The notes below the pieces were generated by a model. That model did not search any database and was not told where the DNA came from. It worked only from the letters and a program-made list of their open reading frames with translations. 64,000 nt of DNA from a virus (taxonomy: Duplodnaviria; Heunggongvirae; Uroviricota; Caudoviricetes): positions 22,065-86,064 of IMG/VR virus record IMGVR_UViG_3300013800_000001; one strand, 5' to 3'. Position numbers and translations under genes: made by a program. Shown piece after piece: positions 121-18,419 of the stretch (position 1 is the stretch's first letter; each line of letters opens with the position of its first letter).

Positions 121-134
121 TGGAATAAAAATTG

Positions 135-207
135 CTCCAACGGAAGGACTCGAACCTTCAACCATCGCCTTAACAGGGCGCCGCTCTGCCAATTGAGCTA
201 CACTGGA
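135..207 (-). tRNA. tRNA-Asn(GTT)
   Basis: Hand-folded cloverleaf. Acceptor TCCAGTG/CGTTGGA, T-arm GAAGG-TTCGAGT-CCTTC, anticodon loop CTGTTAA. Confidence 0.75.
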
Positions 208-218
208 ATATTTCCCTG

Positions 219-289
219 TTCTCCCGCCTGGAATCGAACCAGAATCTCTCGGGCTTCAACCGAGCGCTCAACCACTGAGCTACAGAAGA
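219..289 (-). tRNA. tRNA-Phe(GAA)
   Basis: Cloverleaf with D-arm GCTCAGTGGTTGAGC, anticodon loop TTGAAGC and T-loop TTCGATT. Confidence 0.75.
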
Positions 290-297
290 TTAGACCT

Positions 298-1041
298 CTA
301 ATCGAGGTCAAGTTTTAAATATCTACCCTGACTGCCTTTTAGAGTAAGCGCCTGGACAAAATGGTACTTCACTCCATCTACTTCTTTTGTCTTATGCACA
401 ACATGGTAATCTCCACCTAGTACATGTTTTACATTCGTGTCCTTAATAGCCTCAAAAAACTTTTCATATGTAGGTTTCGGTGTGACCGTGTCCTTTCTAA
501 ATGGTGGCTTTGAGATAGCAATAACGATCTTCTTATCTGTATCTAACTTCTCTTTCAGCCACTTAATCTGCTCATCTGAGAAACCGCCGTCATTCTGTCC
601 TGTTGGATTATATGAGACTTCTTCAGAGTTCATAACAATTATACGCCAACCATCCTTATCTACACTATAATATTTTGATCCTGATAGATACTTAAACCCT
701 TTATCACAATCATGATTACCGAATCCAAAGTAAACCTGTTTCCCTGATTTATCTACTGCTTTTCGAAGTTTTTTATCATACTTTTTAGCGTCTTTACACT
801 TATTGGAATTGTCACCAAGTGCGATATAAATATCTCCTGGTTGATTCAAGAATGCACTAAAATAAGATACTCCCTTGCTAGGATAAATTATATTGCCCGG
901 CGTTGACTTGCTGTAATCACGCTTTTTTTGACTTCCTGCATGGATATCTGATGTTACGTTTAATGTAAAAGCTTCTACTGATGGTAGGCTAACAAATGCA
1001 AATAAGAGTAACGACATCAAGCCTGTGAATGCTATTTTCAT
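298..1041 (-). CDS. Secreted calcineurin-like metallophosphoesterase (signal peptide MKIAFTGLMSLLLFAFVSLPSVEA). The start is moved to the Met at 1041 because the track ORF runs into a tRNA.
   Basis: Motifs IALGDN, GNHD and GDYHVVH. The hydrophobic N-terminus ends in an AxA-like cleavage site. Confidence 0.6.
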   Translation of the reverse strand: MKIAFTGLMSLLLFAFVSLPSVEAFTLNVTSDIHAGSQKKRDYSKSTPGNIIYPSKGVSYFSAFLNQPGDIYIALGDNSNKCKDAKKYDKKLRKAVDKSGKQVYFGFGNHDCDKGFKYLSGSKYYSVDKDGWRIIVMNSEEVSYNPTGQNDGGFSDEQIKWLKEKLDTDKKIVIAISKPPFRKDTVTPKPTYEKFFEAIKDTNVKHVLGGDYHVVHKTKEVDGVKYHFVQALTLKGSQGRYLKLDLD

Positions 1042-1068
1042 ATAATTTTCGATAATATTTAAACTCTG

Positions 1069-1143
1069 TGAACCATGATGGATTCGAACCATCGACCTTG
1101 AGGTTAAAAGCCCCCTGCTCTGGCCGGACTGAGCTAATAGTTC
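1069..1143 (-). tRNA. tRNA-Lys(TTT)
   Basis: Acceptor GAACTAT/ATGGTTC, anticodon loop CTTTTAA, T-arm GATGG-TTCGAAT-CCATC. Confidence 0.75.
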
Positions 1144-1261
1144 ATATTGATTCACTGATGTGTGGCCGAGTTTTACTGACTTATACCAGTCGTGAGGTAA
1201 TTAGCCTCCTCGGTGCCCGTTAGGACTGCTTCACCCTGCCACGCATCAATGAACCATCTTG

Positions 1262-1334
1262 TGATCTGAGAAGGAATCGAACCTTCAACCTTCTGGTTAA
1301 GAGCCAGTTGCTCTGCCTATTGAGCTACCAGATC
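1262..1334 (-). tRNA. tRNA-Lys(CTT)
   Basis: Acceptor GATCTGG/TCAGATC, anticodon loop CTCTTAA, T-arm GAAGG-TTCGATT-CCTTC. Confidence 0.75.
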
Positions 1335-1340
1335 ATCTTG

Positions 1341-1427
1341 AGGAGAATGAAGGATTTGAACCTTCGTTGCTTTTACACAATACAGTTTTCAAGACTGTTG
1401 CCATCAACCAGACTCGGCCAATTCTCC
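1341..1427 (-). tRNA. tRNA-Ser(TGA), class II
   Basis: 87 nt. Perfect acceptor GGAGAAT/ATTCTCC, anticodon stem ACAGT/ACTGT with loop CTTGAAA, long variable arm. Confidence 0.75.
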
Positions 1428-1478
1428 TGGAGAATGTTCCTATTGGGTATCCCCTAATCGTCACAAACAACCGTTATG

Positions 1479-1562
1479 AGGAAGACAGACTATTCGAAAG
1501 CCATTCCTTGCGGAACCCTTCCCTTAGCACGGGAGTGCAGCGCCTTGCTGCTTTATCTTCCT
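1479..1562 (-). tRNA. tRNA-Ser(GCT), class II, weak T-stem
   Basis: 82 nt. Acceptor (A)GGAAGAT/GTCTTCC(T), D-stem GCAG/CTGC, anticodon loop GTGCTAA, variable hairpin TTCC-GCAA-GGAA, T-loop TTCGAAT on a 4-bp stem. Confidence 0.55.
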
Positions 1563-1623
1563 AAATGAGGGAGTGCTATTAAGCGTCACTCAATCGCTAA
1601 ACATGACAGTACTATCATATTTG

Positions 1624-1695
1624 TTCTAGAGGTACGGATCGAACATACTCATACAGGGTTCAAAGCCCCGTGCCTTCCCATTTGGCTACTCTAGA
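1624..1695 (-). tRNA. tRNA-Gln(TTG)
   Basis: Acceptor TCTAGAG/CTCTAGA, anticodon stem CGGGG/CCCTG with loop CTTTGAA, T-loop TTCGATC. Confidence 0.7.
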
Positions 1696-1730
1696 ATATT
1701 TACAGACTGGAGGTGGAGTACCCAGAGGCC

Positions 1731-1773
1731 GTCGCCTCGCCAGTTCGTCTCTTCCATACGTCTATGGCCGGAC
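1731..1773 (-). other. Two spacer hairpins that share a GACG tetraloop (GAGGC-GACG-GCCTC and CCATA-GACG-TATGG on the minus strand)
   Basis: Both are perfect 5-bp stems with identical 4-nt loops, in the 106-nt spacer between two tRNA-Gln genes. No cloverleaf fits. Confidence 0.4.
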
Positions 1774-1802
1774 TTATACTCCCCCTTCAATCTGCAAATT
1801 TG

Positions 1803-1873
1803 TTTCAGTCCAAGGATTCGAACCTCACTTAACAGCTTCAGAGGCTGCTGTCCTACCGCTAGACGAGACTGAA
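1803..1873 (-). tRNA. tRNA-Gln(CTG)
   Basis: Acceptor TTCAGTC/GACTGAA, anticodon loop CTCTGAA, T-loop TTCGAAT. Confidence 0.7.
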
Positions 1874-1886
1874 AAATGAACTCTGG

Positions 1887-1960
1887 GGTGATCGGAGGGG
1901 CTCGAACCCTCAACGGCTCGCTTCACAAACGAGTACTCTGCCAATTGAGCTACGAACACC
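1887..1960 (-). tRNA. tRNA-His(GTG)
   Basis: Anticodon loop TTGTGAA. Extra 5' G(-1) opposite a C73 discriminator, the His identity signature. D-arm GCTCAATTGGCAGAG. Confidence 0.75.
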
Positions 1961-2148
1961 CCAGAATTCACTTGTGGACAGTGTCGGTAACGATCCGACT
2001 CTTTCTGGTTGCAAACCAGATGTGCTGGCCTTTATCACTAACCGCCCATAAATTGAAGAGTGGCCATCTAGTCCATTCAGGAGCGACCTGAGTTATCCCT
2101 TCGCTCTGCTAGATACCATTGAGGAAGGTGTTCGGCGTCTTCAATTTG

Positions 2149-2229
2149 TGGAGATAGAGAGAATCGAACTCTCGTCCGATAGAGTGCCCTTTCGGGATTT
2201 AACTACCGTCGAAACCATTGCTTATCCCC
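2149..2229 (-). ncRNA. Atypical tRNA-like element (81 nt): acceptor and T-arm present, no canonical D/anticodon arms, contains a CCC-GAAA-GGG hairpin
   Basis: Acceptor GGGGATA/TATCTCC and T-arm GAGAG-TTCGATT-CTCTC are clear. The internal part folds as GGTTT-(11 nt)-AAATC plus a CCCGAAAGGG GNRA hairpin instead of a 7-nt anticodon loop. Confidence 0.4.
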
Positions 2230-2230
2230 G

Positions 2231-2301
2231 CATAGAAACCTGGATTTGAACCAGGACTAAAGGTTTTGGAGACCTTTGTGCTGCCGTTACACTATTTCCA
2301 C
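2231..2301 (-). tRNA. tRNA-Trp(CCA)
   Basis: Anticodon stem AAGGT/ACCTT with loop CTCCAAA, G73 discriminator, T-arm CCTGG-TTCAAAT-CCAGG. Confidence 0.75.
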
Positions 2302-2431
2302 GTATTGCTTTTGCTTCTCGAAAATCTTTAGACTAAAGAAATCTTTAGCATTCCACCTGTTCTGCCACTTCATTTTATGAGGCTTACAGAGTGCACATGA
2401 TCGCTTTTTCTTTTTTAGTCTCTTTCTCATA

Positions 2432-2611
2432 CTACTTTCTTAACTCTAACTGATTCTCATTGAATATATGTAGCAACCCGTCTTTATGCTCTGCTACTAT
2501 TCTCACATCACCCTTTGTGTTGGTAAAAATAGCTACAATAATCGAGTTGAACTTATATCCACTAACTTTCTTTGCTTTATCGCCTATCTTGAATTTTGAC
2601 TTTATCTTCAT
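2432..2611 (-). CDS. Small hypothetical protein (59 aa, MKIKSKFKIGDKAKKVSGYKFNSIIVAIFTNTKGDVRIVAEHKDGLLHIFNENQLELRK) inside the tRNA array
   Basis: Translated by hand. It is one residue under the ORF-track cutoff. It looks like a KOW/SH3-like small domain and sits in a 330-nt tRNA-free gap. Confidence 0.4.
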   Translation of the reverse strand: MKIKSKFKIGDKAKKVSGYKFNSIIVAIFTNTKGDVRIVAEHKDGLLHIFNENQLELRK

Positions 2612-2630
2612 ATATTTCTTTATTTATCTG

Positions 2631-2704
2631 TAATCCTAGTCGGATTCGAACCGACGATAACCTGTCTGAAAAACAGGGGGCTTGGGCCGCTTGCCTATAG
2701 GATC
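2631..2704 (-). tRNA. tRNA-Glu(TTC)
   Basis: Anticodon stem CCTGT/ACAGG with loop TTTTCAG, T-arm GTCGG-TTCGAAT-CCGAC. Confidence 0.7.
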
Positions 2705-2709
2705 ATCTG

Positions 2710-2792
2710 TGGGAGGAGTTGGATTCGAACCAACAATGTTTCCGTGTCACGGTTTTACAGACCGCTTGCTTCACCAATTTGCATATCCGCCC
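2710..2792 (-). tRNA. tRNA-Tyr(GTA), class II
   Basis: 83 nt. Anticodon loop CTGTAAA, long variable arm, T-arm GTTGG-TTCGAAT-CCAAC. Confidence 0.7.
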
Positions 2793-2900
2793 TTTTGGAA
2801 CCTATTGCTAGGCGGCCTTTCACCCTATTGCGTAATGGGACTTCAGTAACGGATATATACGCTAACCGTTAAACCGAAAATGGCTCTTATTAATATTCTG

Positions 2901-2972
2901 TTGGCTTAACTAGATTCGAACTAGTGACCTTAGGATTAGAAGTCCTGCGCTCTTCCGCTGAGCTATAAGCCA
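2901..2972 (-). tRNA. tRNA-Arg(TCT)
   Basis: Perfect acceptor TGGCTTA/TAAGCCA, anticodon loop CTTCTAA, D-arm GCTCAGCGGAAGAGC. Confidence 0.75.
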
Positions 2973-2973
2973 G

Positions 2974-3047
2974 TAGGTTATGAAGGAGTCGAACCTTCAC
3001 TGTATGCATTTTGAGTGCATTGCGTCTGCCAATTGCGCCAATAACCC
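2974..3047 (-). tRNA. tRNA with Leu anticodon CAA but class-I (74-nt) architecture
   Basis: Anticodon stem TGCAT/ATGCA with loop CTCAAAA. A73. No long variable arm. It abuts its neighbours on both sides, so it cannot be longer. Confidence 0.6.
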
Positions 3048-3048
3048 G

Positions 3049-3120
3049 TAGGCAATGTTGGAATCGAACCAACGACTTGAAGTATATAAGACTTCATTTC
3101 TTCCACTGAATTAATTGCCT
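3049..3120 (-). tRNA. tRNA-Ile(TAT), reads AUA
   Basis: Perfect acceptor AGGCAAT/ATTGCCT, anticodon stem GAAGT/ACTTC with loop CTTATAT. Confidence 0.7.
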
Positions 3121-3213
3121 GTACGCAAGTATTCCCCCTCTATCACGATTACCAATCGGGGTCTTTCGACCTAATCACGATAGCTTCACCCGAATAGGAG
3201 GAATACCTACATG

Positions 3214-3285
3214 TTGGTAAGGAAGGAGTTGAACCTTCGACCTTAGCCGTATCAGGACTCTGCTCTACCGTTGAGCTACTCACCA
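3214..3285 (-). tRNA. tRNA-Ile(GAT)
   Basis: Acceptor TGGTGAG/CTTACCA, D-arm GCTCAACGGTAGAGC, anticodon loop CTGATAC. Confidence 0.65.
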
Positions 3286-3455
3286 ATATGGTCATTAGAT
3301 AGGTAAGGATTTGACGAGATGTGAGGCTGTAAAACCTTCTTTAATCTATCCACAGATAGAGCATTACTCGTATAGTCACCTTACATGGATTTCCTACCAG
3401 TATCTTTATCCCAACTGGTTTCAGGCGTTACTATTCCGCCACTATCTAAATCCCG

Positions 3456-3528
3456 TAGTTCCCCTGGGATTCGAACCCAGACTTTAGACATTTTAAGTGT
3501 CTTGCCTCTGCCGTTGGGCTAGAGAACC
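3456..3528 (-). tRNA. tRNA with Leu anticodon TAA but class-I (73-nt) architecture
   Basis: Anticodon stem AGACA/TGTCT with loop CTTAAAA. A73. Short variable loop. Confidence 0.6.
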
Positions 3529-3626
3529 ATTGCAATACCTTTTAATCCTATGTGCGGGGCCTCGATAATATTTATATCCAACCATGGTAACCTCACAAAA
3601 CACATTAACGGAAAAAAAGGATTTTG

Positions 3627-3707
3627 TGCGTTAGGAGAGACTCGAACTCTCAACCCTTTCGGGCACGGTTTCTAAGACCGCTGTGTAAACCGTTCCACCA
3701 CCAACGC
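3627..3707 (-). tRNA. tRNA-Leu(TAG), class II
   Basis: 81 nt. Anticodon stem GCGGT/ACCGT with loop CTTAGAA. Variable arm is a CCC-GAAA-GGG hairpin. Confidence 0.7.
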
Positions 3708-3749
3708 ATAGACTTATCGACTTATCGGCCATCGACGTATTACCATCTG

Positions 3750-3823
3750 TACGCTCTGAGGGATTTGAACCCCCGACTTTCTGGTTCGAAGCCAGACACT
3801 CTAGTCCACTGAGTTAAGAGCGT
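3750..3823 (-). tRNA. tRNA-Arg(TCG)
   Basis: Perfect acceptor ACGCTCT/AGAGCGT, anticodon stem TCTGG/CCAGA with loop CTTCGAA. Confidence 0.75.
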
Positions 3824-3949
3824 ATGTTCCCAGGCTTTCATTGGTACCTGGAGTGAGCCTGACATTAAGGGGTATAGCCCCGCATCTGACGACGCAACGT
3901 ACAACCACAATCCCGTAGTAAGGAAATGTATTCTAGTTACTTAATTCAC

Positions 3950-4046
3950 TAGTGGGGAGGAGCGCAAAGTATTACCAGTGACGCCATTCAACAGGGTACT
4001 CTATTACGCATTTCGCCTGAAGGTTTCGTAATCCCTCCCCCCCACT
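3950..4046. other. Structured spacer element: G-run (GTGGGGAGG) pairs with a C-run (CCTCCCCCCAC) about 80 nt away, enclosing repeated CGTAAT/ATTACG motifs
   Basis: It lies in the longest (about 235 nt) tRNA-free spacer of the array. No cloverleaf fits. Confidence 0.3.
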
Positions 4047-4058
4047 AAAGAACTATTG

Positions 4059-4129
4059 AGCACGATACTGGAATCGAACCAGTATATCAGGGTTTGCAAT
4101 CCTGCACCTAGCCTTTCGGTCAACCGTGC
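4059..4129 (-). tRNA. tRNA-Cys(GCA)
   Basis: Anticodon loop TTGCAAA. U73 discriminator, the Cys identity element. Confidence 0.7.
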
Positions 4130-4151
4130 TTATTTTAAAATAACTTCTTTG

Positions 4152-4225
4152 TAGTCCGTGTAGGACTTGAACCTACAACCTTCGGTATGTAACACCGTTG
4201 CTCTAGCCAATTGAGCTAACAGACC
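4152..4225 (-). tRNA. tRNA-Val(TAC)
   Basis: D-arm GCTCAATTGGCTAGAGC, anticodon loop GTTACAT, T-arm GTAGG-TTCAAGT-CCTAC. Confidence 0.7.
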
Positions 4226-4407
4226 AAATCAGGCAGGAGGGCGGCAATCCCCATCATGACTTACAGTGGGAGGGCTGTATAAGTCCCGCAGTAGAGCCTT
4301 TCTGCATTTCAACCTGGAGCGTCGTCAGGGTAACGATCCCTGTCCTTCGGTTTGGAAAACCACTATGCGTCCATGAACACCTACAACGCTTATTTTTCTA
4401 TCTTGGG

Positions 4408-4481
4408 AGCCTCCACGAGGATTCGAACCCCGGACCTACGCATTACAAGTGCGCCGCTCTGGCCAACTGAGCTATAAAGGC
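4408..4481 (-). tRNA. tRNA-Thr(TGT)
   Basis: Anticodon stem GCGCA/TGCGT with loop CTTGTAA, D-arm GCTCAGTTGGCCAGAGC. Confidence 0.7.
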
Positions 4482-4602
4482 TTATTACTAGAAATCATGG
4501 TTATCAATATGCCGTATTAGAGTTACTGATTACCATGAGCTGTGCCTACACTGGCTGGCAAGGCACTCGGTAGGGCTTCGGAATATGATCATCTCTTCCT
4601 TG

Positions 4603-4675
4603 TTGCGATAGTGAGAATCGAACTCACGTACTCCTGCTTATGAGACAGGCCTGGGGCCACTCCAGATATATCGCT
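4603..4675 (-). tRNA. tRNA with CAT anticodon (elongator Met or Ile2-lysidine type). Position 1-72 is an A-A mismatch.
   Basis: Anticodon loop CTCATAA. It lacks the three G-C pairs of initiator tRNAs. Confidence 0.65.
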
Positions 4676-4861
4676 ATATGATGTGGGCGCCTCGACCGAG
4701 GACACACATCGACTTTATCTATCCCATAAGCTGGGCTACCAACAAAACTCCAAAACTAGTATGTGCCCACATTGGCTTCTGTTAGCTAGACAGCAGCGCT
4801 TGAAGACATGGAGTGAATGTTCGTAAACCCCACTTATGAGATAGATTTTAAAATAACTGAG

Positions 4862-4932
4862 TCAGAGTACTAGGAGTTGAACCTAGGCCGAATCCTTCCA
4901 AAGGACTCGTGCTACCGTAACACTTTACTCTG
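4862..4932 (-). tRNA. tRNA-Pro(TGG)
   Basis: Perfect acceptor CAGAGTA/TACTCTG, anticodon loop TTTGGAA. Confidence 0.75.
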
Positions 4933-5015
4933 AGAGACGGATAGTTGTTTTTTCCAAGCAAGCAGCTAGGTAGGGGCTGCGATCCGTCAATGGGGCTTAA
5001 ACGCCGATATACCTG

Positions 5016-5087
5016 TGAGTCAGCCGAGAATTGAACTCGGGCCTGCTCCTTGAGAGGGAGCCGTCTTCGCCACTTGACTACAGACTC
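5016..5087 (-). tRNA. tRNA-Glu(CTC)
   Basis: Anticodon stem GCTCC/GGAGC with loop CTCTCAA, T-arm CCGAG-TTCAATT-CTCGG. Confidence 0.7.
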
Positions 5088-5190
5088 ATTTTTGGAACCA
5101 GACGTTTATAGTCCGGCGGCTCGTCTGACTTACGTGCTATAGGATGTGCACACCCCAACACTGCCGACGATGCTCTTTGATCAATTCCTG

Positions 5191-5261
5191 CGGGACATGC
5201 GAGAATCGAACTCGCACTTACTGGTAGACAACCAGGCGCGCTGCCACTACGCCAATGTCCC
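5191..5261 (-). tRNA. tRNA-Asp(GTC)
   Basis: Perfect acceptor GGGACAT/ATGTCCC. G73. Anticodon loop TTGTCTA. Confidence 0.7.
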
Positions 5262-5289: not shown

Positions 5290-5319
5290 AGTGTACATGA
5301 TGATTTTCCATTTGTCAAG
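5290..5319 (-). promoter_or_regulatory. Conserved phage promoter (TTGACA-N17-TACACT) driving the minus-strand tRNA array
   Basis: Reverse complement is cTTGACAaatggaaaatcatcatgTACACT, about 30 nt upstream of the first tRNA. Confidence 0.65.
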
Positions 5320-5665: not shown

Positions 5666-5703
5666 AATTGAAAGTGTATAAAAGTCCTATTAATTTGTCA
5701 ATC

Positions 5704-6084
5704 CTAACTAGCGTACATCTTGCTTCCTGTATTAGTTCCACGAGCAACTCTAAGGGTATTCTTGAGTGCACGTCTCTTAGCAACATTGGCGCTCATGCGT
5801 CCTAGCACACCACCGGCGGCTAGGCTTCCAATAGTGCCGAGGGTCTTAGCTCCACTGATGGCAGCCTTCTTCCCACTGACATTATCAGAAACATACTTCT
5901 TGGCTGAAGGTGCTACCATACGTTTTGCTATCTTTGAACCAGCGTATTCGGCCAAATCAGTAGCGCCAGATATCCTATTGATTCCTGTAGCTACATCAAA
6001 AGCGAGTCCCTTGCCGGAGGCTTTAACACGTGGGTCATTACTTTTCATGACCTTCTTTAATGCTGCTCTTTTCTGTTCAAACAT
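5704..6084 (-). CDS. Hypothetical Gly/Ala/Lys-rich protein (126 aa), a possible paralogue of the previous gene
   Basis: ORF track. The overlapping plus-strand ORF 5720-6139 is judged antisense noise. Confidence 0.5.
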   Translation of the reverse strand: MFEQKRAALKKVMKSNDPRVKASGKGLAFDVATGINRISGATDLAEYAGSKIAKRMVAPSAKKYVSDNVSGKKAAISGAKTLGTIGSLAAGGVLGRMSANVAKRRALKNTLRVARGTNTGSKMYAS

Positions 6085-6104
6085 AAAAAAAGTATATAAC
6101 AGTC

Positions 6105-6848
6105 CTAAGAATTGTTTTTGTCATAAAGCTCAGGCATGAACCTTCTCAAATATTCGTTAGAAGGATATACAGGAGAGTACAACAAATTCTTGGTAGCTGG
6201 AACGTATATATCTCTATAATCAGGTGCTAATGGTGATCTCATGACGCTACTGCCATTTGAACCATACTCAGCAAAGGACTCAGTGTCCCTCATTCTCTGA
6301 TCAGCATCCATGTAATTGCTAAGGAACTTCTTTAAATACTTGGCGTATTTAGGATCATTCTTTGCTACTTTGTCTTCAAATAAATAGCTATTCCCAGATG
6401 TTCTCCCTCTTTTCACATAGCTGGCATTAGGTTCATCTCTGTTATTAACGTTCTCATCAAGAGAGTGAGTGATCTCATGTCGGAGTGTCCCCACCACTCT
6501 ATCCCCTCTATTCTTTGGGTTTAGTCCATTAGGGTGTACTGTAATCCCACCTTTAGCAGAATTATACTGTCCCATCACAAAAGCCCCTTTGGCTGCGTTA
6601 GACCCTTTGGTGTCTTTTGCTGTTAGAAGCCTAAGAGGCATTTTCTTGATGTATTTCTCTGCCTGTGGGGTATAGGCTGTCTGGTCTAGGACATTTTTCC
6701 TTAGGGTTTCCAATTCAATTGGTTTAGCCTTATATGTCGGTTCTTCATAGGCGTCACTCTTTTTGCTATGCACAAAACCTTTGACGTCACCTTTGACCTC
6801 ATTAATAACTTTCTTCAGAAATTGCTTCTTACTGTCCCAGAAACCCAT
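6105..6848 (-). CDS. Hypothetical protein with an HExxH motif (HEITH), a possible zinc metallopeptidase
   Basis: ORF track. The motif is seen in the translation. No further family call. Confidence 0.5.
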   Translation of the reverse strand: MGFWDSKKQFLKKVINEVKGDVKGFVHSKKSDAYEEPTYKAKPIELETLRKNVLDQTAYTPQAEKYIKKMPLRLLTAKDTKGSNAAKGAFVMGQYNSAKGGITVHPNGLNPKNRGDRVVGTLRHEITHSLDENVNNRDEPNASYVKRGRTSGNSYLFEDKVAKNDPKYAKYLKKFLSNYMDADQRMRDTESFAEYGSNGSSVMRSPLAPDYRDIYVPATKNLLYSPVYPSNEYLRRFMPELYDKNNS

Positions 6849-6886
6849 AGAGTCTTGTTTGTATAACTCTAGGGTAGCAAAGTCCC

Positions 6887-7156
6887 TTAGTTTATAGGGG
6901 CTATTACACCAAGGTCTGAGAGAGTCTCAGCAATGGTATCAAGAAGCATGAGATCATCAGTCTTATCATACTCCTCAATAGCTTTCTGTAATTCAGGGGT
7001 ATCTTCTAATCTTTCAATGTTGTACTTCCCACATAGGTAGCCGATAGCGAATATGTCTTGCGCAAGAAGAATATACTTCTCTTCAGCAGCTTTGTGCACC
7101 ATCTTACGCATATCATTTGATAACTCTTCCTTGCTGCATCTTTGTTTCTTTTCCAT
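6887..7156 (-). CDS. Hypothetical protein (89 aa)
   Basis: ORF track. In the operon. Confidence 0.45.
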   Translation of the reverse strand: MEKKQRCSKEELSNDMRKMVHKAAEEKYILLAQDIFAIGYLCGKYNIERLEDTPELQKAIEEYDKTDDLMLLDTIAETLSDLGVIAPIN

Positions 7157-7248
7157 ATGTTTATATATTACTTAATTATTGGCTTAAATCACCGGGGATT
7201 TTTCTTATTTATCTGTCACACGGTTCAAAGTTTATAACTGTTTATAAC

Positions 7249-7470
7249 TTACTCGTGTGGCGGTTCAATACCTTCCAGCATATACCTCACCATCTCTTCT
7301 GCTTGTGTGTACGTAAAGAGGTTAGTGCCAATAGGTTTATATTCACGCTTATACTCTCCCACTCCCTCGTGGAATTGCTTGAAGCTTATACCTCCATCTG
7401 GGTTAAAGTTCTCAGGTAGTCTCCATTGAAGGAACCGATTTACCATCTTTGCTATTTGCTCTTCATTCAT
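7249..7470 (-). CDS. Hypothetical protein (73 aa)
   Basis: ORF track. In the operon. Confidence 0.45.
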   Translation of the reverse strand: MNEEQIAKMVNRFLQWRLPENFNPDGGISFKQFHEGVGEYKREYKPIGTNLFTYTQAEEMVRYMLEGIEPPHE

Positions 7471-7474
7471 AGTT

Positions 7475-8179
7475 TTATATCAACATTAATGCCTTAATTA
7501 TAGCCTCCTTAAATTCCTTCATATTCCCAGAATCAGAATAGCTCACACCAAGTCCATCGGCTATTTGCCTCAAATTGGCAATCCCCTCGGGAGTGGTCGG
7601 AGCCTTCATTATCTTTCGCCTATTCTCATCATGATCCCCAATGTACAGACAATGCGCATCTCCAAGGCTTTTAGACATCTTTCGTGTCGGGTCCTTAATG
7701 CTCATAATCCTAGGAGTCTCCGTGAGGATAGTTTTTGCAACTTTTTTGATGCCTAGCCTTTTGCAAGTCCTGCGGTAGAACTCCATGTGCTGAATCTGGT
7801 CCTCACCAACGATGACAGCATCACAGTCAGAAAGGATGATATCAGCGGCCATGAGGCAGGGGTACGTAAAGAGTCCGACGTTCCCCTCCCCCTTATCCTT
7901 GAATTGGGTCATCCTTCTGAGGTCTGACATAGGAGTCACACATTGGATTTTAAACGCTAATACCGCTGCGTCTGGATTCTGCATGTAAGCCTTGCCGCCT
8001 AACTCCTCAAGTGTTTCAAGCACATTCACGACATTAATGACCGTATTGCTACCGGTTGTCTCAGCATGGTATTGGGCTACAAGCACCCTTGATTTCTTTT
8101 CTAGAGCCAACTTTAGGCCTCCTAAGTAGTTACCTAGGTGTATGCGTCCAGTCGGTTGTATGCCGTATAAGTATTTCAT
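7475..8179 (-). CDS. trpS-like: Truncated class-I aminoacyl-tRNA synthetase, tryptophanyl-tRNA synthetase-like catalytic core without the C-terminal anticodon-binding domain
   Basis: HIGH-type motif GIQPTGRIHLGNYLG. LRRMTQFKDK and LMAADIIL...VGEDQIQHMEF line up with E. coli TrpRS. KMSKS motif present. Only 234 aa against about 330. Confidence 0.8.
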   Translation of the reverse strand: MKYLYGIQPTGRIHLGNYLGGLKLALEKKSRVLVAQYHAETTGSNTVINVVNVLETLEELGGKAYMQNPDAAVLAFKIQCVTPMSDLRRMTQFKDKGEGNVGLFTYPCLMAADIILSDCDAVIVGEDQIQHMEFYRRTCKRLGIKKVAKTILTETPRIMSIKDPTRKMSKSLGDAHCLYIGDHDENRRKIMKAPTTPEGIANLRQIADGLGVSYSDSGNMKEFKEAIIKALMLI

Positions 8180-8207: not shown

Positions 8208-8237
8208 ATGTTACAGGAACATTTGGTATTTGTCAAG
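8208..8237 (-). promoter_or_regulatory. Variant copy of the conserved promoter (TTGACA-N17-TAACAT) driving the trpS-like operon
   Basis: Reverse complement is cTTGACAaataccaaatgttcctgTAACAT, 30 nt upstream of the trpS-like start. Confidence 0.55.
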
Positions 8238-8239
8238 AG

Positions 8240-9140
8240 GAAAGTCCTATTTTTTGCGAAAAAAATTTTGGCTTATCTGAAGCAAATAATTCAAAAAAAT
8301 GGGGGGTTAAATTTGTAGGGGTGTATGGACTTTCAAAAAATAGAAAATCTCCGTGTTGGTACCCTTCCACCACCCTATTTTCCAGACGGGACTCAGTACC
8401 GAATCACCCCCCATACCCCTATCAGCCTCGTAGTGTCCCCACTGTCCACGCTGTGTGCCCACCCACACTGTGTGCCTCTGCCTCTCACGCCCTGCCACCG
8501 TGCTCTCTACCACTTGATTGGTGTATATAACTATTAACCATACACAAGAGTATGTACATATACAGAGATGAGGCTACAGGTCTCTATCATTGCGATCATG
8601 TGTTCGTTACCGTACGTGGGCGTTGCTACCTGGTGGGGGTAGAGTACGTGGGCGTCACAAGGATGGAGGTCATACGTCAGGTAGTAGGCAATGCATGGTT
8701 CAAGAGAATGCGTCTCAACCTTGCTTACTCTATGACAGTGGATAGGTGAGTGGCTCTGTTGAGGGATTTACCACTTGAGTGGTGTTATGATTTAGGTCGA
8801 TTTAAAATCATGACGAGTGTTTGTGTGTTAGAGAAAAGTTAGAGTCGGTTGCTCTGATAACAGAGAATATCCGACAAAATGCTTGTAATAGGTATTACAG
8901 AGTGGCTAATAAACGCCAGCTGAATCAATCAACTACTTACGAAAGCAAAGACCATATCCACAGCAAACGTGATACATCTCACGAAATATATAATATACAC
9001 TGTGTGACTCGTCTGCTAGATAAGTAAAGACTCAGAGAGCATAAGCCACTGTCAAATGCCTACTACAAGCAAATCTCGCTTTATGCGGGTTAAGCGCTTG
9101 CACCGTAACAACTGCAATATCATCAATCTAAAATAATCCT
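8240..9140. other. About 0.9-kb non-coding region with atypical C/pyrimidine-rich, strand-biased composition and short repeats
   Basis: Repeats: CACGCTGTGTGCC / CACACTGTGTGCC, GTACGTGGGCGT x2, CCACTTGA(T/G)TGGTG x2. Only short, odd-composition ORFs. It lies between divergent transcription units. Confidence 0.45.
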
Positions 9141-15581: not shown

Positions 15582-16880
15582 ATGCCAAAAACAACAACAA
15601 CCAAAGAAGAAGCAGCAAAAGAAGTAGAATACAATGGAATCAAAGTAGAAAAAGGTGACGGACTAAGCCAATTTATCCCAAAATCAGCAAAAAAATACAT
15701 CGACCACGGTAATATTCTAAAAACTCTAGCAATCGGTATTCGTGATGATATGGCAGTGCTACTCATCGGAGAATCAGGAACAGGAAAAACATCAGCTATT
15801 CGTCACATGGCTCAAGAAACCAACAACGGACTCCGTCGTATCAACCTCAACGGTGGCACAACAGCTGATGAACTCGTAGGACGAATGCTTATCAATGATC
15901 AAGGAACATACTGGGTTGATGGAGTACTCACAGAAGCCATGCGATCAGGAGATTGGATTGTTTTTGATGAAATTAACGCAGCACTCCCAGAAGTTCTCTT
16001 TGTGCTTCAATCAGTCATGGATGATGACGGATATCTAGTTCTCACAGAAAAAGATGATAAAGAAATTGTCCACAAACACAAAAACTTCCGCATCTTTGCT
16101 ACCTGTAACCCACCAGAATATGCCGGTACAAAGGAAATGAACAAAGCATTGCTCTCTCGCTTCGGTATCTGTATCAATGCAGAATTCCCTAAGAAAGAAG
16201 TAGAGCTAGAAATCATTGAGCATCACCTAGGAAAATCAGTAGCCGAATCAGAAATGGCTATCAAACTCGTAGATATGGCTAACGAAACACGTACTCAGAA
16301 GCAAAATGGAAAAGCTGAATACGAAATCAACACACGAGATATCTTGAACATCCTAAAGCTCGCACAAACAATGGAACCAATCCAGGCGGTACAAATGGGA
16401 TTTAGCAACAAATTAGAGCCTACAGACTCAAAAGCATTCCAAACATATGCAACTCTTCATGTACCAAGTTCAAGACAGAAAGCAAAAGCTACACGAACAG
16501 CTATGACAGACACAAATGCTTTTGAAATTGGAAAGAAATATATCTTAGATGCTGATATGCAAAAATGCTACTTTGGCCTAGAAAAGTATACAATCTCTGA
16601 ATTTGACGCCCTAAAAAAGAAAGGACTACTAGAAATTGTTACAGAAAAAGACCAAGACAACGGAATCAAAGGAGATGAGTTCAAAGTAACAGCAACATTC
16701 TACGAGAATGAAGTCCAAGCATCAGAAAAAGACCTAGATATGACACAAGCTGGACAGAAAACAGGAAGTGCAATCACCATCACAGCTGGTGCAAACAAAG
16801 GAAAGAAAGCCATCATAATCCATAACCAAGGCATTCAGGATGCAACAGAACTCCTAGCAACAATCTTCCAAATCAGCTAA
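15582..16880 (+). CDS. MoxR/CbbQ-like AAA_5 (dynein-related) ATPase
   Basis: Walker A LLIGESGTGKTS. Walker B WIVFDEINAA. The CNPPE...LLSRF arrangement is typical of the AAA_5 MoxR subfamily. Confidence 0.8.
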   Translation: MPKTTTTKEEAAKEVEYNGIKVEKGDGLSQFIPKSAKKYIDHGNILKTLAIGIRDDMAVLLIGESGTGKTSAIRHMAQETNNGLRRINLNGGTTADELVGRMLINDQGTYWVDGVLTEAMRSGDWIVFDEINAALPEVLFVLQSVMDDDGYLVLTEKDDKEIVHKHKNFRIFATCNPPEYAGTKEMNKALLSRFGICINAEFPKKEVELEIIEHHLGKSVAESEMAIKLVDMANETRTQKQNGKAEYEINTRDILNILKLAQTMEPIQAVQMGFSNKLEPTDSKAFQTYATLHVPSSRQKAKATRTAMTDTNAFEIGKKYILDADMQKCYFGLEKYTISEFDALKKKGLLEIVTEKDQDNGIKGDEFKVTATFYENEVQASEKDLDMTQAGQKTGSAITITAGANKGKKAIIIHNQGIQDATELLATIFQIS

Positions 16881-16892
16881 CAAAAACTCATT

Positions 16893-18419
16893 ATGAAACT
16901 CGTAGAATTCCAAAAAATAGCAGAGATGCTAGCAAAACAGCATAAAATCACAATTCACGAGGGAGAAAAATGGGCAGCTAACATTGAGCAAAGAAAGATA
17001 TTCTATGTAAAAAACGATATCTATAACCTGCCTGAGGATCATATCCTCGGGCTCTTGCTCCATGAGATTGCTCACATCCACTACACAACCGATGTTAAAT
17101 TACCAGAAGAAAACAAAGAATTGCTGCACACAGCCCTAAATATGATCGAAGATATCGCTATCGAACATATAATCGGAGGAGATTATCCTAATGCAGCAGA
17201 AATCCTTAATTCAACAAAAGATGAAGTATTGGACACTCTCGTAAGATTGCTCCCAAAATTAGAACGATCAGTCCATGAAAAAGCCCTTCTCTATGCCGCT
17301 GCTAGATTTGAAGGAAGAGGATACAAAAACGGAATCGAAGATTATGAAGTACTTGGAAACAAAGTAGCAGACATCATGATTCCTAAAAAAGAAGAAATCT
17401 ACAACAGAGAAGAAACAGAAAGTCTCATGCCAATTGTAGACGAAATAGCCAAACTTCTCGTAAAAGAAGCAGGAGAGCCAACAGACAAGGAAAAAGAAGA
17501 AATGATGGGAGAAGAACAGCATGGACAAGCCAATCCGAACGGAAAGGAAAGTCATCAAAAAAAAGCCTGTCACGGAAATCCTGTAAAACAAGAGATAATC
17601 GATGAATTAAAAGCAGGAAATGGCTGGATAAAAGGCATAGCACAAGAACAAAGAATAGAATTCGTCGATGAAATAGCAGAACAATCAGAAAAAATAGGCA
17701 AAGAAATCAGAAATGTCCTAAAAAGAAACAATGCTATGGAATTTGGCGGAAGATATAGAACTGGAAAGCTAAAAACAAAAAGAATCGTTAAAATAGTTGC
17801 ACAAAAAGACAGAAATCCTTTCTCAAGAAGAATTGTCAAAAGCAACCAAAGCTATGCCTTTTCAGTTGTTATCGACGTTTCGGGTTCAATGTTCAATGAC
17901 TACACCGCACCTGGTGAATACGACAAAGGAAGCTATGCCCTATCTAGTATGTATATGCTAGGAGAAGCCCTTAAAAAAGCCTCAATTCAAAGAAGTCTCA
18001 TCATATTCGGAGAAATAGCAGTCAAAATAAATGACATGAACAAAAAAGAAGTAAGATGGGAAGAAATCTGTGATCAAAAGAAACATGATCAAGCAGAATA
18101 TGGAGGAACAGACATCGCCCAAGGAATGGCTAAAGGCATACTAGAACTAGAAAAAACCAGAGCAGAAAGGAAAATACTCATAGTTCTCACAGACGGAAGT
18201 AGCCATAAACCAGACATGGAAAGAGTCCATGAAATAGGAAAAAAAGCAGGAATAGAACAACTAGGAATAACAATATCTCAAAACGACCTACCAATAGAAA
18301 TCATGAATGAAGTCTTCGGAGAAGAAAAAAACACAATCATCAAAGATGTTCAAGACACAAAACTAATTGGTAAGGCATTTATTGATATCCTTAAAAGATC
18401 TGTAAAGAAATCAGTATGA
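16893..18419 (+). CDS. von Willebrand factor A (VWA) domain protein with an N-terminal HExxH motif, partner of the MoxR-like ATPase
   Basis: MIDAS-like VIDVSGSM...TDGS. HEIAH motif near the N-terminus. Classic MoxR-VWA adjacency. Confidence 0.7.
   Translation: MKLVEFQKIAEMLAKQHKITIHEGEKWAANIEQRKIFYVKNDIYNLPEDHILGLLLHEIAHIHYTTDVKLPEENKELLHTALNMIEDIAIEHIIGGDYPNAAEILNSTKDEVLDTLVRLLPKLERSVHEKALLYAAARFEGRGYKNGIEDYEVLGNKVADIMIPKKEEIYNREETESLMPIVDEIAKLLVKEAGEPTDKEKEEMMGEEQHGQANPNGKESHQKKACHGNPVKQEIIDELKAGNGWIKGIAQEQRIEFVDEIAEQSEKIGKEIRNVLKRNNAMEFGGRYRTGKLKTKRIVKIVAQKDRNPFSRRIVKSNQSYAFSVVIDVSGSMFNDYTAPGEYDKGSYALSSMYMLGEALKKASIQRSLIIFGEIAVKINDMNKKEVRWEEICDQKKHDQAEYGGTDIAQGMAKGILELEKTRAERKILIVLTDGSSHKPDMERVHEIGKKAGIEQLGITISQNDLPIEIMNEVFGEEKNTIIKDVQDTKLIGKAFIDILKRSVKKSV

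Follow-up and report, generated by a model that had tools for sequence, protein, structure and literature searches.

A Phage Family of Miniaturized, Putatively Complete Tryptophanyl-tRNA Synthetases

A 64,000-nucleotide stretch of DNA from a tailed phage (positions 22,065 to 86,064 of IMG/VR record IMGVR_UViG_3300013800_000001; hereafter, the window) encodes a 234-residue relative of tryptophanyl-tRNA synthetase (TrpRS). Based on residue conservation and the predicted fold, we favor, with moderate confidence, the reading that this gene specifies a miniaturized but functionally complete bacterial-type TrpRS that would charge tRNA-Trp during infection. A sequence-only reading of the same DNA had described the protein as a TrpRS without its anticodon-binding domain; by alignment, the core of that domain, with the loop and lysine expected to read the anticodon, is kept, not lost. 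The gene lies as follows:

7475 to 8179, minus strand: coding sequence of a streamlined TrpRS (class Ic, bacterial type), 234 amino acids, assigned from the list of open reading frames (ORFs), profile matches, and fold.

The ORF list gives an ATG-to-stop frame at these positions, where the earlier reading had also placed it. The protein matches Pfam family PF00579 of class I tryptophanyl- and tyrosyl-tRNA synthetases (E = 3.7e-30). Among solved structures, it matches bacterial TrpRS enzymes best (3prh, 1i6k, 8i1w, and others; E about 1e-25), with phage residues 5 to 203 aligned to residues 6 to 229 of the Bacillus stearothermophilus (Bst) enzyme. An AlphaFold2 model built on a 130-sequence alignment reached a mean predicted local distance difference test score (pLDDT) of 94.9 and a predicted template modeling score (pTM) of 0.89, and Foldseek superimposed it on Bst, Escherichia coli, Mycobacterium tuberculosis, and human mitochondrial TrpRS with query-normalized TM scores of about 0.84. 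The Rossmann fold and the CP1 module are both seen in the model, CP1 lacking only the equivalents of E. coli residues 116 to 120. A viral structure library held no counterpart of the mini-TrpRS, the top matches there being giant-virus tyrosyl-tRNA synthetases. All of the sequence blocks quoted in the earlier reading are present, namely, HLGN (residues 14 to 17), LRRMTQFKDK, LMAADIIL, VGEDQ, and KMSKS (residues 167 to 171), and its idea of a small phage TrpRS with intact catalytic motifs is borne out by the alignment and by conservation in 90 family members. Profile, structure, and model matches together identify the ORF product with confidence as a bacterial-type TrpRS homologue.

To describe what has been lost, the family was aligned with Salmonella TrpRS, which has 334 residues like that of E. 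coli, and E. coli (Ec) numbering is used here. In the cocrystal of EcTrpRS with tRNA(Trp), the aminoacylation domain comprises residues 1 to 85, 140 to 183, and 299 to 334, CP1 comprises residues 86 to 139, and the helical anticodon-binding domain comprises residues 184 to 298, so that the terminal stretch 299 to 334 is a helix of the aminoacylation domain (PMC12135181). The Ec residues without an equivalent in the phage protein are 1 to 3, 31 to 34, 55 to 57, 73 to 77, 85 to 86, 116 to 120, 168 to 172, 182, 201, 213, 228 to 240, 262 to 268, and 285 to 334. The 100 missing residues thus consist of 50 at the C terminus (285 to 334) and 50 spread over twelve short trims. The equivalents of Ec 184 to 284 are kept except for loops 228 to 240 and 262 to 268 and the trims at 201 and 213, which leaves about two-thirds of the helical anticodon-binding domain, modeled as one strand and three helices (183 to 191, 197 to 210, and 220 to 233). 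The alignment stops at about Ec 284, and the C-terminal helix (Ec 299 to 334) is absent here and from the whole mini family. This helix, a part of the aminoacylation domain, is the largest single loss; the end of the last anticodon-domain helix is also gone. The earlier statement that the protein stops about 100 residues early therefore holds for its total length relative to the E. coli type but not for its C terminus, which accounts for only about half of the difference. The claim that the C-terminal anticodon-binding domain is missing does not hold, since about two-thirds of it is retained, including T195 and K224, and most of the C-terminal loss is the aminoacylation-domain helix.

The residues expected to carry out catalysis and tRNA recognition were counted in 90 short family members, with 39 full-length relatives for comparison at Ec K274. 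The main sites are as follows:

8129 to 8140, minus strand: HLGN, the HIGH-type ATP-binding signature (residues 14 to 17; Ec T17 to N20), with H in 89/90, G in 89/90, and N in 87/90.
7841 to 7843, minus strand: Asp113 (Ec D135), conserved in 90/90.
7781 to 7792, minus strand: Q130-H-M-E133 (Ec Q152 and E155), putative readers of discriminator base G73, with Q in 73/90 and E in 80/90.
7667 to 7681, minus strand: KMSKS (residues 167 to 171), with K, M, and K in 90/90 and the two S residues in 89/90 and 88/90.
7589 to 7606, minus strand: putative anticodon-recognition loop K192-A-P-T195-T196-P197 (Ec R222 to S227), with T195 in 87/90.
7508 to 7510, minus strand: Lys224 (Ec K274), in 88/90 of the mini family and 39/39 full-length relatives.

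In bacterial TrpRS, the indole nitrogen of Trp is bonded by a helix aspartate, which is D135 in E. coli; in EcTrpRS, Q152 stacks on G73 and E155 reads it (PMC12135181). The anticodon is read there by the loop R222 to S227 together with K274: T225 contacts C35 and A36, K274 contacts C35, and the backbone of Y270 and G271 contacts C34 (PMC12135181). The GEDQ motif of the phage protein (G125-E-D-Q128) is conserved, with the equivalent of its Ec Q150 present in 90/90 short members. Of the two contacts to the acceptor backbone, Ec R106 (R89 in the phage protein) is R or K in 86/90 members (68 R and 18 K), and Ec R158 (R136) is retained in 73/90. The Ec D226 position is occupied by Thr in 71/90 short members and the Ec S227 position by Pro in 49/90. 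The tRNA contacts listed for the cocrystal all fall in retained segments except the water-mediated contact of Glu119, which lies in the deleted loop 116 to 120, and no tRNA contact from Ec 285 to 334 is described (PMC12135181). Mean column entropy is 1.30 bits for the anticodon-loop segment (residues 192 to 210), 0.9 to 1.3 bits for the catalytic segments, and 2.58 bits for the variable region (residues 31 to 69); by this measure, the anticodon-loop segment is conserved as strongly as the catalytic core.

These counts bear on the possibility that the protein is an anticodon-blind enzyme, without an anticodon domain, that recognizes only the acceptor end and would charge the phage tRNA-Trp or any tRNA or minihelix with G73. 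Such an enzyme would suit a protein 100 residues shorter than E. coli TrpRS in which Ec D226 and S227 are replaced and loops 228 to 240 and 262 to 268 are deleted and whose gene shares its strand with a tRNA array that includes tRNA-Trp. However, we consider it unlikely in view of the two-thirds of the helical domain that remain, the T225 and K274 equivalents that are almost universally kept, and the constraint on the anticodon segment, which equals that on the active site. Charging without anticodon proofreading, as suggested in the sequence-only reading, is thus not indicated, though the D226 and S227 positions do differ. Full-length cellular TrpRS enzymes of Patescibacteria have the same TTP loop, and the closest of them (P0081 and P0085) carry the same TTPEG sequence, which means that the substitution predates the truncation; the variant is probably compatible with ordinary TrpRS function, if those cellular enzymes are the sole TrpRS of their genomes. 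Most carriers of the short gene, moreover, have no tRNA-Trp nearby, and complete removal of the anticodon domain cripples Bst TrpRS, reducing its rate about 1e5-fold and nearly abolishing discrimination between Trp and Tyr (PMC5272822). Given such an effect, it is understandable that the family trimmed loops and the terminal helix and kept the anticodon-domain core and CP1.

The short length of the protein is genuine. An identical 234-residue protein is encoded on a 99-kb Joint Genome Institute (JGI) contig and on a 3.9-kb contig assembled independently from a different read set. When the C-terminal 85 residues of five full-length relatives and residues 271 to 334 of the Salmonella enzyme were compared with the window by tblastn, no C-terminal TrpRS remnant was found in any frame at E < 0.1. 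The full-length relative P0085 (315 residues) aligns through its residue 266, at the very end of the phage ORF, and the ORF immediately downstream (7249 to 7470) has no TrpRS similarity and no family match. A frameshift or split gene was ruled out by the tblastn result and this unrelated downstream ORF, and supply of the missing part in trans was ruled out by the lack of any neighbor common to the lineages among ORFs within 4 kb at 11 loci. The sequence-only reading had named a frameshift or sequencing error as what would undo the truncation, and the two assemblies, the absent remnant, and the family-wide length instead agree that it is real. A decaying gene fragment or an assembly or frameshift artifact, to which the length (shorter than every cellular TrpRS) and a profile score below the NCBIfam cutoff might otherwise point, is scarcely credible: about 106 homologues share the same end point across 35 to 76% identity with invariant catalytic residues, and the predicted fold is confident. 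The conservation data already refute this explanation.

The window protein belongs to a family of similarly short enzymes. A search of 5.8 billion proteins returned about 80 clusters of 228 to 260 residues, at 44 to 100% identity, ranked ahead of the first full-length TrpRS, and about 30 further short members, more divergent, came from an exhaustive HMMER scan of 1.84 billion representatives. In a neighbor-joining tree built from 240 sequences, a single clade took in 106 of the 109 short sequences, among them the 237- and 239-residue versions encoded by the Mahaphages LR756501 (735 kb) and LR756502 (642 kb), whose genomes are the two largest published for phages. All carriers that were examined look like phages: they are contigs of about 27 to 47 kb, IMG/VR viral contigs, Mahaphages of 640 to 735 kb, and the phage of at least 99 kb described here. 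The contigs of about 27 to 47 kb encode a holin, GpA terminase, Rep_O, NinG, ERF/YqaJ, and SSB proteins, and the contigs that carry one member (P0055) recur at about 41 kb in many samples, which suggests that this is the length of the complete genome. When the ORFs lying within 4 kb at the 11 loci were compared all against all, no neighbor gene was common to the lineages; the mini-TrpRS gene therefore behaves like an accessory gene that is mobile.

Among full-length enzymes, the best-scoring relatives are those of Patescibacteria, which have 309 to 318 residues and show about 44% identity. One of these, P0081, is encoded on a genome contig of 744 kb, with RNase J on one side and housekeeping genes on the other and SecG also near, and one short member lies on a small contig binned as Moranbacteria. 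Two further short members, P0074 and P0079 (loci L017, 8001 to 8720, and L180, 10001 to 10714), carry in-frame TGA codons where their relatives have Gly (QPT-G-RLH and SL-G-DD), from which it follows that their phages use genetic code 25 (TGA = Gly), the code of Gracilibacteria and Absconditabacteria (PMC10746230). In this code 25 subgroup, the G73-reading pair changes jointly (Q to P and E to H), as would be expected if tRNA recognition is the selected function. The tree and these relatives indicate that the mini-TrpRS is probably a single-origin phage family derived from a Patescibacteria-type TrpRS, and the evidence from the carriers, taken together, suggests that the gene probably originated in Patescibacteria and that the hosts are probably among them too. 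Unlike this proposal, the published Mahaphages were assigned Bacteroidetes hosts (PMC7162821). Pattern scans of genomes and metagenomes gave, among the matches listed, mostly cellular full-length TrpRS enzymes at 33 to 41% identity and no mini-type gene in species-representative genomes, from which absence there cannot be claimed.

In the favored reading of a complete but miniaturized enzyme, the protein would form a homodimer, by homology, through its retained CP1 module. It would activate Trp with ATP by means of HLGN, KMSKS, GEDQ, and the indole-binding Asp113 and pass the Trp to a tRNA-Trp spanning both subunits, with R89 and R136 holding the acceptor arm and Q130 and E133 reading G73. The anticodon would be read, via T195 and K224, by what remains of the helical domain, namely, one strand and three helices. 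We infer this chemistry and tRNA binding from the fold and the conserved residues. Charging of phage tRNAs by phage TrpRS enzymes has been found experimentally (PMC12636597). With the enzyme, the phage would have a Trp-tRNA(Trp) supply of its own during infection, using host tRNA-Trp and, in this phage, possibly its own G73-bearing tRNA-Trp as the substrate, and phage translation could thereby be freed from the amount or state of the host TrpRS. The biological purpose is the weakest part of the proposal, although it is plausible that a private supply of Trp-tRNA would help if the host enzyme is scarce, off, or attacked.

Several observations weigh against this reading. The protein scores 113.6 bits against NCBIfam trpS TIGR00233, below the equivalog cutoff of 176.75. 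In all bacterial TrpRS structures solved so far, the C-terminal helix that has been lost here is part of the aminoacylation domain, and its loss could affect folding, domain motion, and catalysis. Two of the four anticodon-reading side chains of the E. coli enzyme are replaced (D226 to T and S227 to P) and the loop preceding the C34-reading backbone (262 to 268) is deleted, so that anticodon reading may be weaker or different. Trp makes up 0.99% of residues in long window ORFs and 0.6 to 1.6% in other carriers; it is not overused, and no special demand for it is evident. It is also not obvious what phages of about 40 kb would gain from a TrpRS.

The tRNA genes in the window are relevant to the question of substrate:

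2231 to 2301, minus strand: phage tRNA-Trp(CCA) with G1:U72 and G73 (ARAGORN; Rfam, 61.9 bits; sequence read).
134 to 5261, minus strand: array of 26 tRNA genes that follows the TrpRS transcription unit downstream on the same strand (ARAGORN and Rfam).

The tRNA-Trp(CCA) was found at the position given in the sequence-only reading, on the same strand as the TrpRS gene. It is not next to the TrpRS gene, as stated there, but 5.2 kb downstream of it within the array. Its bacterial discriminator G73 is consistent with the retained Q130 and E133. A tRNA-Trp lies within 10 kb of the mini-TrpRS gene only in the window and in one Mahaphage (L001), which has one tRNA-Trp 200 nucleotides downstream and another 2.1 kb upstream. 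The 10-kb flanks in the other lineages contain no tRNA-Trp, holding only tRNAs for Tyr, Ile(TAT), Arg(TCT), or Met or no tRNA. Because most carriers lack a nearby tRNA-Trp, the enzyme must be able to use host tRNA-Trp. An obligatory pairing with a phage tRNA-Trp was ruled out on the same grounds, and a dedicated enzyme-tRNA pair is not a general rule; charging of the phage tRNA-Trp, as proposed earlier, is possible but not obligatory.

Two other explanations for carrying a TrpRS were tried and rejected. A Trp-rich phage proteome was ruled out by the Trp content given above. A code-change module of TrpRS, tRNA-Trp(UCA), and RF1 was also ruled out: none of the 26 window tRNAs has a UCA anticodon, the only tRNA-Trp being CCA, and window ORFs of up to 1877 residues are open under the standard code (code 11).

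Side observations were made on these tRNAs. The set of 26 covers 19 amino acids, without a tRNA-Gly, and includes an unusual tRNA-Ile(TAT), which also immediately follows the mini-TrpRS gene of a 40-kb phage that is unrelated (L178, 7513 to 7589). In the 735-kb phage (L001, 4815 to 4985), the mini-TrpRS gene is followed by a 91-nucleotide tRNA-like gene with a four-base anticodon call (ttac) and then by tRNA-Trp(CCA). That downstream tRNA-Trp has A73, not the bacterial G73, whereas the second, upstream tRNA-Trp has G73. Directly 3' of the window tRNA-Trp lies an 84-nucleotide element (2146 to 2229, minus strand) that matches the Rfam transfer-messenger RNA (tmRNA) family RF00023 (60.1 bits; E = 5e-21) and was not called by ARAGORN. 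It has a tmRNA-like 5' end (GGGGAUAAGCAAUGGUUUCGACGG), an acceptor stem with G3:U70, and a T-arm, with only a hairpin of about 30 nucleotides in place of the messenger and pseudoknot part, and may be a mini-tmRNA consisting of the tRNA-like domain alone.

A more specific version of the purpose is counterdefense, in which the phage protein would act as a replacement that sustains translation, or as a decoy that absorbs an inhibitor, when the host TrpRS is shut off, for instance by HipT-type kinases that phosphorylate TrpRS or by TrpRS-directed antibiotics. This is a refinement of the proposal of a complete enzyme, not an alternative chemistry, and we regard it as rather unlikely. In its favor, the E. 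coli HipBST toxin HipT specifically targets TrpS (PMC10627512). In small phages, the mini-TrpRS gene is found among early or accessory genes; one copy (L179) lies about 0.9 kb from an Acb2/Tad1-like antidefense gene and another (L178) near an ART-PolyVal gene, and the gene moves among unrelated phage genomes without conserved neighbors. However, the KMSKS serines, which would be the targets of such a kinase, are conserved, and no TrpRS-targeting system is known in the presumed hosts.

The retained tRNA contacts also bear on a role outside translation, in which Trp-adenylate would be used for a Trp-derived small molecule, a non-tRNA acceptor, or dinucleotide polyphosphates, by analogy with GluQRS/YadB and PoxA. 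The intact ATP and Trp sites and the general existence of truncated synthetase paralogues with new acceptors would allow it. However, conservation extends to the residues that contact G73, the acceptor backbone, and the anticodon, the family branches from within genuine TrpRS enzymes, and no conserved partner gene, such as one for a carrier protein or biosynthetic enzyme, accompanies it, which together make this role very unlikely and leave the earlier suggestion of a Trp-derived small molecule unsupported. GluQRS/YadB and PoxA are truncated synthetase paralogues without an anticodon domain that act on a noncanonical acceptor; a paralogue of this type was rejected because the core and key residues of the anticodon domain are kept and conserved. 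Cyclodipeptide synthases have a class Ic-like Rossmann fold without the HIGH and KMSKS ATP-binding motifs and use aminoacyl-tRNAs as substrates, and this identity was ruled out by the intact HIGH-type and KMSKS signatures.

Compared with known systems, the phage protein resembles E. coli TrpS and Geobacillus stearothermophilus TrpRS in fold (TM, 0.84), sequence (27 to 31% identity), and possession of HxGN, GEDQ, KMSKS, and the indole Asp, and it shares with bacterial TrpRS the CP1 module, the G73-reading Gln/Glu pair, and the anticodon-site Thr and Lys. Unlike those enzymes, it is phage borne, is 100 residues (about 30%) shorter through the loss of Ec 285 to 334 and the 12 trims, and falls below the equivalog cutoff. 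With Patescibacteria TrpRS such as P0081, it has in common the TTPEG anticodon loop, a KSLGD extension after KMSKS, and an already shortened 228-to-240 region, but those enzymes keep their last 45 to 50 residues and longer CP1 and Rossmann loops and sit among housekeeping genes. A cellular class Ic housekeeping enzyme of 306 residues can also be compared. Cited in PMC12636597, it is natural, active, and without a large C-terminal tRNA-binding region, but it differs from the phage enzyme in specificity and in the part that is missing. Phage synthetases as such are already known (PMC7162821). The TrpRS:tRNA-Trp(UCA) pairs of phages AP1 and HF2 are likewise phage encoded and charge the phage tRNA experimentally (PMC12636597; cited in PMC10746230), but they are systems of code 4 phages with a UCA suppressor tRNA and RF1, and no truncation is reported for them (PMC12636597). 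The TrpRS catalytic domain (204 residues) and Urzyme (130 residues) engineered by the Carter laboratory are also reduced and still catalytic. Both the Urzyme and CP1 are represented in the phage enzyme, a natural protein in which the anticodon-domain core survives, whereas the Carter constructs lack the whole domain (PMC5272822).

Within the literature on truncated or phage TrpRS, we found no description of a conserved, single-origin TrpRS family of about 230 residues. We know of no characterized natural synthetase this small. A bolder proposal, which we offer only tentatively, is that these proteins of 228 to 260 residues are the smallest natural free-standing specific synthetases, without a C-terminal helix and with a pared-down anticodon site, TTP instead of TDS, that may tolerate anticodon variants, and that they free phages of Patescibacteria, including code 25 phages, from the host TrpRS. 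If true, the family would be a natural experiment on the minimal protein needed for a specific class I synthetase and a compact scaffold for orthogonal translation. Small enzyme-tRNA pairs are useful in genetic-code expansion. An active enzyme would set a new lower size limit for natural class I synthetases, at about 230 residues versus about 310 to 330 for cellular TrpRS, and would mark the C-terminal helix and surface loops as dispensable but not CP1, the anticodon-loop Thr and Lys, or the G73 readers, which bears directly on experimental TrpRS module and urzyme work. It is also unusual that phages of ordinary size (about 40 kb), not just huge ones, repeatedly carry a synthetase, and the connection with Patescibacteria-type TrpRS and with phages in which TGA stands for Gly offers a handle on the little-known phages of that radiation.

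The TrpRS gene is the first of five ORFs in a putative leftward transcription unit that points to the tRNA array. The associated features are as follows:

8208 to 8236, minus strand: promoter-like site TTGACAAATACCAAATGTTCCTGTAACAT (TTGACA-17-TAACAT), 29 nucleotides upstream of the ATG, with a 10/12 match to the sigma-70 consensus and a putative function.
5290 to 5318 and 5673 to 5701, minus strand, and 23697, 29487, 36056, 42720, and 49738, plus strand: copies of the motif TTGACAAATGGAAAATCATCATGTACACT, ahead of gene blocks and the tRNA array.
5704 to 7470, minus strand: four small ORFs of 73, 89, 247, and 126 amino acids between the TrpRS gene and the tRNA array (ORF list).

The sequence-only reading had placed a consensus promoter at 8208 to 8237. 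A promoter-like site is present at 8236 to 8208 on the minus strand, but generic sigma-70-like sites in the region are no more common than in shuffled sequence (9 found versus 9.5 expected), that is, at chance level. The site shares a TTGACAAAT...TGTA frame with the 29-nucleotide promoter-like motif TTGACAAATGGAAAATCATCATGTACACT, which occurs in 7 copies in the window against 0.06 expected, and by this resemblance it is best read as a diverged copy of that motif. Only the extended phage-specific motif is significant; the generic promoter scan is not. The four small ORFs have no Pfam or PHROG match and no homologues beside the mini-TrpRS gene in other phage lineages. The 247-residue ORF (6105 to 6848, minus strand) contains an HExxH motif (LRHEITHSLDE) and may encode an undescribed metalloprotease. 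Between this divergent unit and the rightward genes lies an intergenic region of about 900 bp (8240 to 9140) with no long ORF and a markedly G-rich segment on the minus strand (about 8330 to 8510); it gave no Rfam match at gathering thresholds.

Elsewhere, the window encodes a tape-measure protein with a transglycosylase end, a UvsX-like recombinase, a PrimPol-DnaB helicase, a DnaD-like loader, ParB, an SNF2 helicase, and a CHAP-domain protein, and the source is a tailed phage of at least 99 kb. Genes for a MoxR-type AAA+ ATPase (AAA_5 and CbbQ_C) and then a von Willebrand A-domain protein lie at 15582 to 18419 on the plus strand and form a typical MoxR-VWA chaperone pair, here within a phage genome. 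Other mini-TrpRS phages, of about 28 to 41 kb, encode GroES and GroEL homologues (L011, 14076 to 16643; L012, 13905 to 16472; and L179, 5922 to 8952), which is unusual for phages of that size.

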